Shown here in pieces: positions 20,269 to 42,373 of a stretch of DNA of 64,000 nucleotides (position 1 is the first letter of the stretch; every line of letters starts with the position of its first letter). Where the stretch lies: assembly GCA_964392705.1 (NCBI GenBank), contig CAYMQZ010000001.1, forward strand, positions 8,155 to 72,154, written 5' to 3'. Under the pieces are notes generated by a model. That model was not told the origin of the DNA and ran no database searches. It was given only the letters and a program-made list of their open reading frames with translations. This stretch comes from an uncultured Gemmatimonadota bacterium. GTDB lineage: Bacteria; Gemmatimonadota; Gemmatimonadetes; Palauibacterales; Palauibacteraceae. Position numbers and translations under genes: made by a program.

Positions 20269-21210
20269 GTGAAAGAGCTGCTGCAGCGGTACCTGGAGAC
20301 CCGCATCTCGCTGGACGATCCCGAGGTCGTCCTCGCCGGGATGAGCCGGTCCGACGCCCTGCGGGCCGCCCGCCGGCTCGCGCTCGGCGGCCGCCGCCGG
20401 CCGGGCTCCCGCGCGACGGGAGCGAGCGCCTCGGAGCCGAAGGCCGCGCCTCGTGCGTCGGCGAAGCGCGCCGCAGATGCCGGCGATCCCTCCACGCCGC
20501 GCCCCGGCGCCCCGGCTCCGGCGAGCGCCTCGGAGGGCGAGGTGGAGCTGCGCGAGGAGGAGATCGCCCGACTCCGCTCCGAGGCCGACGCGGCCGAGCT
20601 GCGCGTCCTCCCCAACCTCGCCACCCTGCGCGGCGTCGCCGTCGGCTGCACGCGCTGCGGGCTTCAGGCGGGGCGGCGGAACGTCGTGTTCGGGGAGGGC
20701 AGCCCCGGCGCTCGGGTCGTTTGTGTGGGCGAGGCGCCGGGCGCGAAGGAGGACGAGACCGGCCGACCGTTCGTGGGGCGGGCGGGACAGCTGCTCGACC
20801 GGCTGCTGCTCACGGCGGGGTTCGCGCGGGAGGAGGTCTACATCTGCAACGTCCTCAAGTGTCGGCCGCCGGGAAATCGGGATCCCCGGCCCGAAGAGAT
20901 CGAGGCCTGCTCCCCCTACCTGTTGCGCCAGCTGGAGCTGATCGATCCGGAGGTGATCGTGGCGTTCGGGACCTTCGCGGCGCGGACCCTCCTGGAGGCG
21001 CGGGAGTCGCTGGGCAGGCTCCGCGGCCGGACCCACCTGTACGCCGGGTACCCCGTCGTGGTCACCTATCACCCGGCGGCCCTGCTCCGGAATCCGGGCT
21101 GGACGCGACCCACGTGGGAGGATCTCCAGCGCGCCCGGCGCATCGTGGAGGAGGGAGGAGGGCGGGTCGCCGCGAGGACGGGCCCGGCCCAGGGAGGCCT
21201 GTTTGGCTGA
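20269..21210 (+). CDS. Uracil-DNA glycosylase, family 4 (4Fe-4S), with about 120-aa low-complexity N-terminal extension
   Basis: [21 protein letters not shown] and [14 protein letters not shown], with a CTRCGL cysteine cluster. GTG start at 20269 preceded by GGGAGGGA. Confidence 0.85.
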
Positions 21211-22597
21211 TCCCGCGCTCTCCGTCCGGGACGTCGAGTCGTTCGGCGGTCGCCAGCCCCCCTGGTCCGAGGAGGCCGAGATCTCCGTCCTCGGCGCCAT
21301 GCTCATCGACGGAGACGCGGTGGCGCAGGCCGTCGAGCTGGTCGACGACGCGGCGTTCTACCGGGAGGCGAACCGGCGGATCTTCCGCGCGATGGCGCGC
21401 CTCTACAACCGCGGCGAAGTGATCGACGTCGTCACGCTGGCCGACGATCTCAAGTCGGCCGGCGAGCTGGAATCCGCGGGTGGGATGGCCTACCTGGCCC
21501 AGCTGGTCGACGCCGTCCCGACGGCCGCCAACGTCGAGTATCACTGCCGCATCCTGCGGGACAAGGCGGTCCTGCGCCGCCTCATCGAGTCGGCCACCGA
21601 GATCGTTCGGGACGCCTACGAGGCTCCGGCGGGCGAGGTGGACGAGACGCTCGACCGGGCCGAGCAGCGGATCTTCGAGATCGCGCAGGCGAGCCAGCGA
21701 TCGGGCTTCGTCTGGATCAAGGAGATCCTGTGGCCTACGTTCGAGCGGATCGAGGAGCTGCAGCGCAGCCCCGGCACCGTCACGGGGGTCCCGACGGGGT
21801 TCCCGGACCTGGACCACATGACCTCGGGCCTCCAGACGTCCGATCTGGTCATCCTGGCCGGCCGGCCCTCGATGGGGAAGACGGCGCTGGCGCTCAACCT
21901 GGCCCAGCACGCGGCGATCGAGGCCGAGATCCCGGTGGCGATCTTCTCCCTCGAGATGGCGAAGGAGCAGCTCGTCCAGCGCCTGCTGTGCGCCGAGGGA
22001 CGCGTCGACTCGAGCCGCCTGCGACGAGGGAGCCTGGAGGACGACGAATACGCCCGCCTCGCGACCGCGGCGGGCCACCTGAACACGGCGCCGATCTGGA
22101 TCGACGACACGCCGGCGATCTCGGCGCTCGAGCTGCGGGCCAAGGCCCGGCGCCTCCGCGCCGAGGTGGACCTCGGCCTCATCATCGTGGACTACCTGCA
22201 GCTGATGTCCGGGCCCCGCAACGTGGAGAACCGCCAGCAGGAGATCAGCACGATCTCCCGCTCGCTGAAGGCCGTGGCCAAGGAGCTGGGCGTCCCGATC
22301 CTGGCCATCTCGCAGCTCTCCCGCGCTCCGGAGCAGCGTACGGATCACCGCCCCGTGCTGGCGGACCTCCGGGAATCGGGAGCGATCGAGCAGGACGCCG
22401 ACCTGGTCCTGTTCGTCTTCCGCGAGGAGGTGTACAAGAGCCGGGACGAGATCCTGGCCGACCCCTCGCTCGAGGGGAAGGCCGAGCTGATCATCGGGAA
22501 GCAGCGCAACGGTCCGACGGGCGACGTTCCGCTCTACTTCCACAAGCCCTACACGCTGTTCGACTCGGTCTCGCGCCGCGAGCGGGACGAGGCTTGA
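21203..22597 (+). CDS. dnaB: Replicative DNA helicase DnaB
   Basis: EAEISVLGAMLID, Walker A GRPSMGKTALAL and IIVDYLQLM. TTG start at 21203 with AGGGAGG 5 nt upstream. It overlaps the udg end by 8 nt. No intein is present. Confidence 0.9.
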   Translation: MADPALSVRDVESFGGRQPPWSEEAEISVLGAMLIDGDAVAQAVELVDDAAFYREANRRIFRAMARLYNRGEVIDVVTLADDLKSAGELESAGGMAYLAQLVDAVPTAANVEYHCRILRDKAVLRRLIESATEIVRDAYEAPAGEVDETLDRAEQRIFEIAQASQRSGFVWIKEILWPTFERIEELQRSPGTVTGVPTGFPDLDHMTSGLQTSDLVILAGRPSMGKTALALNLAQHAAIEAEIPVAIFSLEMAKEQLVQRLLCAEGRVDSSRLRRGSLEDDEYARLATAAGHLNTAPIWIDDTPAISALELRAKARRLRAEVDLGLIIVDYLQLMSGPRNVENRQQEISTISRSLKAVAKELGVPILAISQLSRAPEQRTDHRPVLADLRESGAIEQDADLVLFVFREEVYKSRDEILADPSLEGKAELIIGKQRNGPTGDVPLYFHKPYTLFDSVSRRERDEA

Positions 22598-40588: not shown

Positions 40589-42373
40589 TCACAGACGCGG
40601 CGGGGTCACCCCCTCCTGCTTCTGGTACTTCCCGCGCTTGTCGGCGTAGCTCACCTCGCACGGCTCGTCCGATTCGAAGAAGAGCACCTGGGCGATCCCC
40701 TCGTTCGCGTAGATCCTCGCCGGCAGGGGGGTCGTGTTGCTGATCTCCAGCGTCACGTATCCCTCCCATTCGGGCTCGAACGGGGTGACGTTGGTGATGA
40801 TCCCGCAGCGGGCATACGTTGAATTGTGGGCGAAGATTCCATTTGCCAGGAAGTTGTGTGCGCCGGGGACCGTGAGGTCGAAGACCTCCTCCTCGCCCGC
40901 GGGCTCGATGGAGCGCACGGCATCCCACAAAGGGCCGCCGCCGTCCGTGAGCGCTTCCAGCTCCTCATCCTCCGTGATCGCCGCCACCGCCGAAGCTGCC
41001 GCGTACGGCACCGACTGCGCGGGCTGAGTGCCTCGGACCCCCATGCTGCGGAGACTCCTGCCATGCTCGCGCGCGCCGCGCCGGAGCAGCTCCCAGCCCT
41101 CGCGCGGCAGCGTGTGGAAGTTCGACTTCCGCCGCGGACGAGCGCGCAGCGCGGGCAATCGCTCTTCGAGTCGATCCTGCTTTTCGGATCCGGGCCAAAA
41201 GCCGATCCGTTCCGCGAAGCGAAGCACCTGACGCCGATCCGTGATCTGGAGGCGAAAGGCCCGCGTCTTCGCCCGGGTGCGGCGCTCGCGAATGAGCGAC
41301 ACGATGCCGTAGCGCAGGAGGAGGTGGTGGACGTCCTCGATCAGACGCCGGGACTTGGAATAGTACTCGAGGAAAACCCCCTCGCCCGTGTAGAACGACC
41401 CGTCGCAGGAAAAGAGCGCGCGCAGGAAGCGCCTCACCGACGGCTCCGGTGCCGTGAAGACCGCCTGCGGGACGTGCTTCGCTCCCGCGCCGACGCACAG
41501 TCCATGGCTCGCCAGCCATCGGCTGCATGCGTTGCGTTCCATGGTCCCTCCGCGCCCGCGCCTGTTCACGATACGGTAGCCGTATGTTCCCTTGGGGGAG
41601 ACTTCCGCTCCGATCCCCACGACCGACTCCTCGAGTAGCCGCACGAGGACCGGGTCCGCCGAGGTGAACGTGGGGCTGTGGCCCGGCGCCTTGCACTGGC
41701 CCTCGGAGATCATGAGCCCGAGCAGGGCGGCCTCCCAGGCGGGAAGCGTCGTCCGGCCGAACACCGGTACCTCGCGCGCGACCGCGATCCGGTCGCCGGG
41801 CCGCAGGCTCTCGAGCGCCGTCCAGCCGTCGAGCTTGCGGAAGGGGTGGTTGGCCGTGGCGCGAACCTTGAGTCCGAGGCGCGTCGTCAGTTCGAAGACG
41901 GGCTTCCGGCCCTGCGGCAGGAACCGGCTCACCGGAAGCTCGCCTCCGCGCCAGCCGTCCAGACCGAACGTGCGGGCGCCCCCGGCAAACTCCGCGATCG
42001 GCAGATAGGCCCCGGTGTCGGCATCCACGACGCGCGTGTCTCCGGCGACGCACTTGCCCACGCAGATCGTGAGCACGTTCCGGGGGATGCGGAAGTACTC
42101 CACCGAGCGCGCCAGCGCGAAGGAGTTGGGCGGGATGATGCAGGTGTCGGACTGGACCTCGATGAAGGAGCGCTCGTCGAACGCCTTCGGGTCCACCACC
42201 TGCGAGAGGGCGTTGTGGAAGATCCGGAACTCGTCGGCCACGCGCATGTCGTAGCCGTAGCTGCTGAGCCCGTACGAGATGGCCCCTTCGCGGACCCCCC
42301 GGTCGGCGAACGGCTCGATCATCCCTCGTTCGGTCGCCATCCGGCGGATCCAGCGGTCGCTCTTGATCGTCAT
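40589..42373 (-). CDS. dcd: dCTP deaminase interrupted by an intein (extein 184 aa plus intein 410 aa)
   Basis: Exteins [11 protein letters not shown]...DMRVADEF...NVLTICVGK / [49 protein letters not shown] match Dcd across the KSS-AR-G motif. An ORF between them starts Cys and ends His-Asn followed by Ser. ATG at 42373 overlaps the hydrolase stop (ATGA). Confidence 0.85.
40823..42052 (-). mobile_element. Intein with LAGLIDADG-type homing endonuclease domain inside dcd
   Basis: N-terminal splice junction K|CVAGDTRVV; C-terminal junction FAHN|S. Two LAGLIDADG-like blocks ([24 protein letters not shown]). Flanking exteins rejoin to a canonical ...VGKSTYARCG... Dcd motif. Codon positions checked: TGC at 42052-42050, AAT at 40825-40823. 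Confidence 0.8.

Follow-up and report, generated by a model that had tools for sequence, protein, structure and literature searches.

A predicted LAGLIDADG-bearing intein in the dCTP deaminase gene of a probable Gemmatimonadota bacterium

In a bacterium that probably belongs to the Gemmatimonadota, the chromosomal dcd gene is interrupted by an insert that is very probably a canonical intein of class 1, within which lies a LAGLIDADG homing endonuclease with two motifs. The gene, encoding dCTP deaminase (Dcd), lies on the minus strand of the window (the whole 64-kb stretch of DNA analysed here). Within a large intein family, the window copy is a fairly divergent new member with a Gemmatimonadota host. 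It is a well-documented case of an intein hosted by an enzyme of nucleotide metabolism rather than by one of the classic hosts DnaB, RecA, RNR and DnaE.

The interrupted dcd gene

The reading frame was translated from the minus strand and its boundaries were set by script. The coordinates given in the preliminary description, 40589-42373 for the frame and 40823-42052 for an insert of 410 residues, proved exact. The insert begins with CVAGDT and ends with GIFAHN, after which the sequence continues as STYARCG. Pfam recognizes in the 594-aa precursor the DCD domain in two pieces together with LAGLIDADG_3 and Intein_splicing, each scoring higher than its curated cut-off. The features, in window coordinates, are as follows.

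40589..42373, minus strand: dcd precursor ORF, 594 aa and stop; its ATG shares the sequence ATGA with the TGA of the upstream ORF
42053..42373, minus strand: N-extein, Dcd residues 1-107, C-terminal end ...NVLTICVGK, Pfam DCD profile positions 1-100
40823..42052, minus strand: intein, 410 aa, precursor residues 108-517
40589..40822, minus strand: C-extein, 77 aa and stop
42050..42052, minus strand: Cys1 codon, predicted nucleophile of the first acyl shift; invariant in 84 of 84 alleles
41753..42052, minus strand: N-terminal splicing (Hint) region, aa 1-100, with blocks A and B (TIGR01445, alignment with the Npu and Ssp DnaB mini-inteins)
41846..41857, minus strand: block B T-A-N-H (T66, H69)
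40943..41752, minus strand: homing-endonuclease region, aa 101-370, two LAGLIDADG half-domains and a helical C-terminal part (Pfam LAGLIDADG_3, fold match)
41699..41725, minus strand: LAGLIDADG motif 1, LLGLMISEG, acidic residue E117; E117 and G118 conserved in 84 of 84
41399..41425, minus strand: LAGLIDADG motif 2, LRALFSCDG, acidic residue D217; D217 and G218 conserved in 84 of 84
40823..40942, minus strand: C-terminal splicing region, aa 371-410, with blocks F and G (TIGR01443)
40820..40822, minus strand: +1 Ser codon TCA, predicted transesterification nucleophile; aligns with Ser111 of E. coli Dcd

For the 184-aa protein formed by the joined flanks, the NCBIfam equivalog TIGR02274 (dCTP deaminase; cut-off 92.8) gives 165.6 bits and Pfam gives one contiguous DCD match. 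The protein aligns without a gap over the junction with the Dcd of Burkholderia thailandensis (PDB 4dhk, E 1.5e-90), and likewise with PDB 3km3. The contiguous alignment with Dcd structures that the preliminary description had named as a check is thereby in hand. That description had also held that joining the flanks restores the conserved Dcd motif. The motif is indeed restored, but its reading as K-S-S has to be corrected, the actual sequence being G-K-S-T-Y-A-R-C-G, i.e. K-S-T. In genome annotation, this dcd should be regarded as functional and not as disrupted.

The insertion point is between Lys107 and the Ser equivalent to Ser111 of E. coli Dcd (G-K↓S-T-Y-A-R; arrow, insertion point). 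Residues S108 (the +1 Ser), R112 and E133 of the extein align with Ser111, Arg115 and Glu138 of the E. coli enzyme, which Johansson and colleagues reportedly described in 2005 as active-site residues. In the alignment, the pattern G-K-S-[ST]-x-[AG]-R-x-G is kept even in the distant Dcd of M. tuberculosis, and G-K-S-T-Y-A-R-C is kept in the 75 intein-less loci examined. Thus the predicted intein interrupts the catalytic loop of Dcd, in agreement with the earlier placement of the insert in the active-site motif. A synthetic intein-less dcd site of about 60 bp would read CGGAACGTGCTCACGATCTGCGTGGGCAAG up to the insertion point and TCAACGTATGCCCGCTGCGGGATCATCACC after it.

An alpha/beta-hydrolase ORF lies upstream of dcd, and its stop codon overlaps the dcd start in the sequence ATGA (window 42370-42373). 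The overlap suggests co-transcription and translational coupling of the two ORFs. The dcd neighbours include DUF423, an HD-domain protein and nuoA/nuoB, showing that the setting is an ordinary chromosomal one among housekeeping genes. A search of the 64-kb window with an extein profile found no second dcd, and a Dcd-intein profile run against its six-frame translation found no further inteins. The dnaB gene (21203-22597, plus strand) encodes a single contiguous DnaB helicase of 464 aa without an intein, as had been noted before. At the DnaB-b intein insertion position, this protein reads LRESG↓AIEQDAD, with Ala instead of Ser at +1.

The splicing domain and the homing endonuclease

The profile search of the excised 410 aa, proposed earlier as a check, found both the splicing blocks and the LAGLIDADG domain. 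The Hint fold is matched by PF14890 (Intein_splicing) with 64-66 bits against a cut-off of 35.8. TIGR01443 (intein_Cterm) scores 37.3 bits against a cut-off of 15.6, and TIGR01445 (intein N-terminal splicing region) scores 23.4 bits, slightly below its cut-off of 24.5. In the NCBIfam model for intein-containing DnaB, the intein segment is matched by the insert over the full length (E 1.5e-69), and among PDB sequences the insert scores best with the Npu and Ssp DnaB mini-inteins (4o1r, 1mi8).

The residues of the splicing blocks agree with these matches. The insert begins CVAGDTRV, with the nucleophile Cys1 of block A; D392 of block F, H409-N410 of block G and the +1 Ser of the C-extein are all present. 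The Cys1 and the terminal HN with +1 Ser that the preliminary description had pointed out are thus seen in the translation, and Cys1, H409 and N410 are conserved in 84 of 84 alleles. Self-splicing of the window intein is very likely on these grounds.

LAGLIDADG_3 (PF14528) matches with 70-71 bits against a cut-off of 22.5. Each LAGLIDADG motif keeps its acidic-Gly pair, LLGLMISE117G in the first and LRALFSCD217G in the second. The two blocks had been recognized earlier, and with E117 and D217 in place the endonuclease does look intact. Endonuclease activity of the window intein is likely.

An AlphaFold2 model of the intein, built with 96 homologues, has a pLDDT of 94.2 and a pTM of 0.93. In the model, the LAGLIDADG fold sits inside the Hint domain. 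Foldseek against the PDB gives the TliVMA intein as the top full-length match (E 5e-21, TM 0.72), followed by PI-PfuI, the Tko Pol-II intein and PI-SceI; the mini-inteins 4o1r and 1mi8 are matched by the model as well, and the endonuclease part also matches I-DmoI. In TliVMA (7qss), PI-PfuI (1dq3), Tko Pol-II (2cw7) and PI-SceI (1vde), the Hint domain is broken by a two-motif LAGLIDADG domain as in the window model. However, these four show only 12-19% identity to the window intein, and their hosts are archaeal or yeast proteins (VMA, RNR, Pol). The earlier reading of the dcd insert as an intein is therefore borne out by splicing-block and LAGLIDADG profiles in Pfam and NCBIfam and by the full-length fold match to bifunctional inteins.

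A mechanism is proposed in which we infer both the splicing and the DNA cleavage from sequence. The 594-aa precursor would be translated with the loop G-K↓S-T-Y-A-R interrupted, and the precursor should therefore be inactive. Cys1 would undergo an N-S acyl shift, and the +1 Ser would attack the thioester to give a branched ester. Cyclization of Asn410, aided by His409, would then release the intein, and an O-N shift would leave a native peptide bond in the 184-aa Dcd. Once released, or when made in a cell that also has an empty allele, the intein would serve as a site-specific endonuclease that cuts dcd alleles lacking the insert, in the highly conserved coding sequence for ...CVGK↓STYARCG..., and recombinational repair would copy the intein into the cut allele, i.e. 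homing.

Relatives of the intein in Dcd and in other proteins

The precursor was searched against 5.8 billion proteins, giving 2387 matches at E <= 1e-10, and the best 120 of them were examined. All 120 carry DCD, LAGLIDADG_3 and Intein_splicing, and the intein is always at the same K↓C...HN↓S site. Some homologues bear the JGI name 'deoxycytidine triphosphate deaminase/intein/homing endonuclease'. The family comprises at least 120 protein clusters, and intein-only patterns detected 238 related metagenome stretches. It is abundant in soil and freshwater metagenomes and common in environmental bacteria, so the window finding is genuine but fairly ordinary.

DNA sequences were available for 84 alleles, namely the window, four species-representative genomes and 79 metagenome loci. 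In all 84, the intein is an intact ORF of 408-412 aa, and no truncated mini-intein form was found among them at the GK↓S site. C1, T66, H69, E117, G118, K192, D217, G218, D392, H409 and N410 are conserved in 84 of 84, with an overall identity of only about 60%. We read such invariance of catalytic residues at this level of identity as pointing to purifying selection on the splicing and endonuclease functions alike. The invariant endonuclease residues suggest a homing element that is still active, which could yield new splicing domains or meganuclease specificity.

We refer to the insertion point after GK as site a. The 'site-a' LAGLIDADG inteins of environmental bacteria share with the window intein the insertion point (GK↓C...HN↓STYAR), a length of 408-416 aa, the domain order and the catalytic residues. 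The window copy differs from them in its identity, at most 67% among those listed, and in its extein of Gemmatimonadota type.

The one Dcd intein studied by experiment is that of the cyanophage vB_AphaS-CL131, whose gp069 intein self-excises in E. coli (PMC6293099). Apart from CL131, Dcd inteins had been seen in only two bacteria (PMC6293099, citing MacGregor 2013). The CL131 intein shares with the window intein the host enzyme, the catalytic loop, the class-1 type and Cys1. Translation of the CL131 gene shows that its intein is inserted five residues downstream (GKSTYAR↓CFTGD...VKN↓CGII), with a +1 Cys, a length of 352 aa and an HNH motif, whereas the window intein follows GK, has a +1 Ser and carries LAGLIDADG; it lies outside the CL131-type site b class. 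Given the different position and the HNH endonuclease of the CL131 intein, the window intein represents a different allele. The Dcd catalytic loop therefore holds two intein points five residues apart, one used by a LAGLIDADG intein and the other by an HNH intein.

Site b (STYAR↓C...N↓CG[IL]I), homologous to the CL131 intein, is also occupied in relatives. Its inteins occur as forms of roughly 376 aa and as mini forms of 191-223 aa; the long forms and some short ones match a loose HNH-like pattern. The second site was found in the proteins P0019, P0027, P0031, P0034, P0035, P0041, P0052 and others (784-974 aa) and at the loci L009, L052 and L070. Some of the proteins carry both inteins, with the pentapeptide STYAR alone between them, and in three genomes site b is filled and site a is empty. 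In the window, site a alone is occupied.

In an exhaustive search of representatives, the Dcd-hosted relatives reach down to about 36% identity. Beyond them come the DnaB inteins, at the P-loop site MGK↓T and at RESG↓S, together with inteins at Walker-A-like GK↓S/T junctions of other proteins. The DnaB inteins (Ssp/Npu at RESG↓S; P-loop at MGK↓T; NF005852) are the nearest non-Dcd relatives, being 36-39% identical to the window intein along all 410 aa, the endonuclease included. They share the block motifs with the window intein, but differ in host protein and insertion site and fall into separate clades. In a neighbour-joining tree, the Dcd inteins were monophyletic in 39 of 50 bootstraps.

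The searchable literature yielded no description of a LAGLIDADG intein in Dcd. The allele is essentially undescribed in print, yet abundant and partly auto-annotated in databases. The earlier remark that dcd would be an uncommon intein host thus holds for the searchable literature and not for the sequence databases, where this allele is abundant.

Distribution, mobility and alternative readings

The 120 best listed matches to the extein show 84-92% identity, have 183-211 aa and contain the DCD domain alone, and are thus intein-less. The names among them are Gemmatimonadota, Palauibacterales or 'marine benthic group'. The nearest loci in species-representative genomes are also intein-less Gemmatimonadota, and empty sites with conserved target sequence were found at 75 loci. 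Two intein-bearing proteins, P0001 (extein 100% identical) and P0002 (extein 89% identical), were missing from the list of the extein-only search; split matches were apparently under-ranked. Intein-bearing close relatives were counted from the precursor-based comparison and not from that search. Among the intein-bearing proteins listed there, the extein identity exceeds 80% in P0002 alone (89%), and no other member listed is more than 67% identical to the window intein. The 80 best species-representative loci include four genome-derived carriers, three Betaproteobacteria (a Casimicrobiaceae, a Burkholderiaceae and an uncultured one) and one Planctomycetia. With the nearest listed exteins intein-less, the intein is distributed sporadically across its clade, the pattern to be expected of a mobile homing element.

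The intein has 69.4% GC, compared with 65.7% and 64.1% for the two exteins. Its 3' end has a GC content of about 0.60-0.62, only marginally below that of the exteins, and the statement of the preliminary description that the 3' end is noticeably less GC-rich than the host gene does not hold; only the GC3 of the intein is reduced, being 0.85 against 0.97 and 0.91 in the exteins. The genes of the window range from 0.86 to 0.93, so the GC3 of the intein lies near the host range and gives no sign of a very recent arrival. The dcd exteins themselves have 64-66% GC against 72% for the window, yet a GC3 of 0.91-0.97. Amino-acid composition, and not a foreign origin, probably accounts for their lower GC.

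Over the family, intein and extein identities are correlated (r = 0.76). The window and P0002, compared for signs that they acquired their inteins independently, are 89% identical in the extein and 65% in the intein; this pair ranks 150th of 684 comparable pairs and is no outlier. Long vertical residence with many losses therefore fits the data no less well than recent homing does. A scan of viral contigs was swamped by an extein-derived pattern and found no viral vector with the window allele, only one relative of 30% identity. This distant relative is on a 194-kb viral contig (L082, IMG/VR IMGVR_UViG_3300048837_000984). Another distant relative, also of 30% identity, is in a Saccharibacteria MAG (L005).

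These data bear on a second reading, in which the intein splices but is immobile, its endonuclease being inactive or its targets exhausted, and is kept because a precise deletion from an essential loop is hard. The co-variation of intein and extein identities is consistent with much vertical descent, the GC3 has almost come into the host range, and the endonuclease region is somewhat more diverged than the splicing region (60% and 67% mean identity to the family, respectively). However, E117, D217, K192 and both LAGLIDADG Gly residues are kept in 84 of 84 alleles at about 60% identity and truncated mini-inteins are absent among these alleles at this site, which argues for continuing selection on the endonuclease, and the intein is sporadic among close relatives. 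An immobile intein is thus a possibility to be taken seriously, yet not the one we would expect.

Conditional splicing is known in other inteins. Here, redox or stress could act on splicing through Cys1 and the extein Cys residues at -4 (ICVGK↓C) and +6 (STYARC), giving a post-translational switch on the dUTP/dTTP supply. Insertion in the catalytic loop would suit such a switch, since the precursor should be inactive. If this were true, the intein would be more than a parasite, controlling Dcd activity and so the dUTP/dTTP supply. However, Cys(-4) is not kept in the more distant intein-bearing Dcd representatives (e.g. GIVLGK, VLLLGK, ALLLTK), most close relatives do without the intein, and the sequence shows no specific regulatory sign. 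We consider a switch of this kind improbable.

A domain inserted or fused without splicing is a very improbable reading of the insert, and so is a disabled dcd pseudogene: the ORF is intact with all splicing residues present, and the extein is seamless and strongly conserved (GC3 0.91-0.97; 84-92% identity to the 120 best listed intein-less relatives). An assembly chimera is hardly credible, for although the source is probably a metagenome-assembled genome and the identical protein occurs once in the protein collection, more than 80 independent contigs show the exact in-frame insertion at this very codon boundary.

The preferred reading remains that of a splicing intein with a homing endonuclease. 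The +1 Ser codon was considered as a possible mark of endonuclease susceptibility or co-conversion. It is TCN in 81 of 84 intein-bearing alleles against 36 of 75 empty alleles (Fisher 8e-13; junctions including L001-L004 and L083-L162). In the window the codon is TCA, and in the nearest empty relative (L006) it is AGC. No single synonymous step connects TCN and AGY. When each of these 81 TCN alleles with an intein is set beside the empty allele closest to it in N-extein identity, the empty partner has TCN too in 70 cases; the association is thus largely confounded by lineage, and TCN versus AGY was not retained as such a mark.

The sequence at the insertion point, G-K↓S-T (42053-42058 / 40817-40822), equals the local sequence of the Walker-A P-loop, GK↓S/T. 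Many intein relatives are at GK↓S/T junctions, in DnaB (MGK↓T) and other hosts (P0129, P0175, P0187, P0202, P0222-P0269). The likeness may explain how the lineage arrived in Dcd; a P-loop-targeting intein endonuclease may have captured the look-alike GK↓ST site and so given rise to it.
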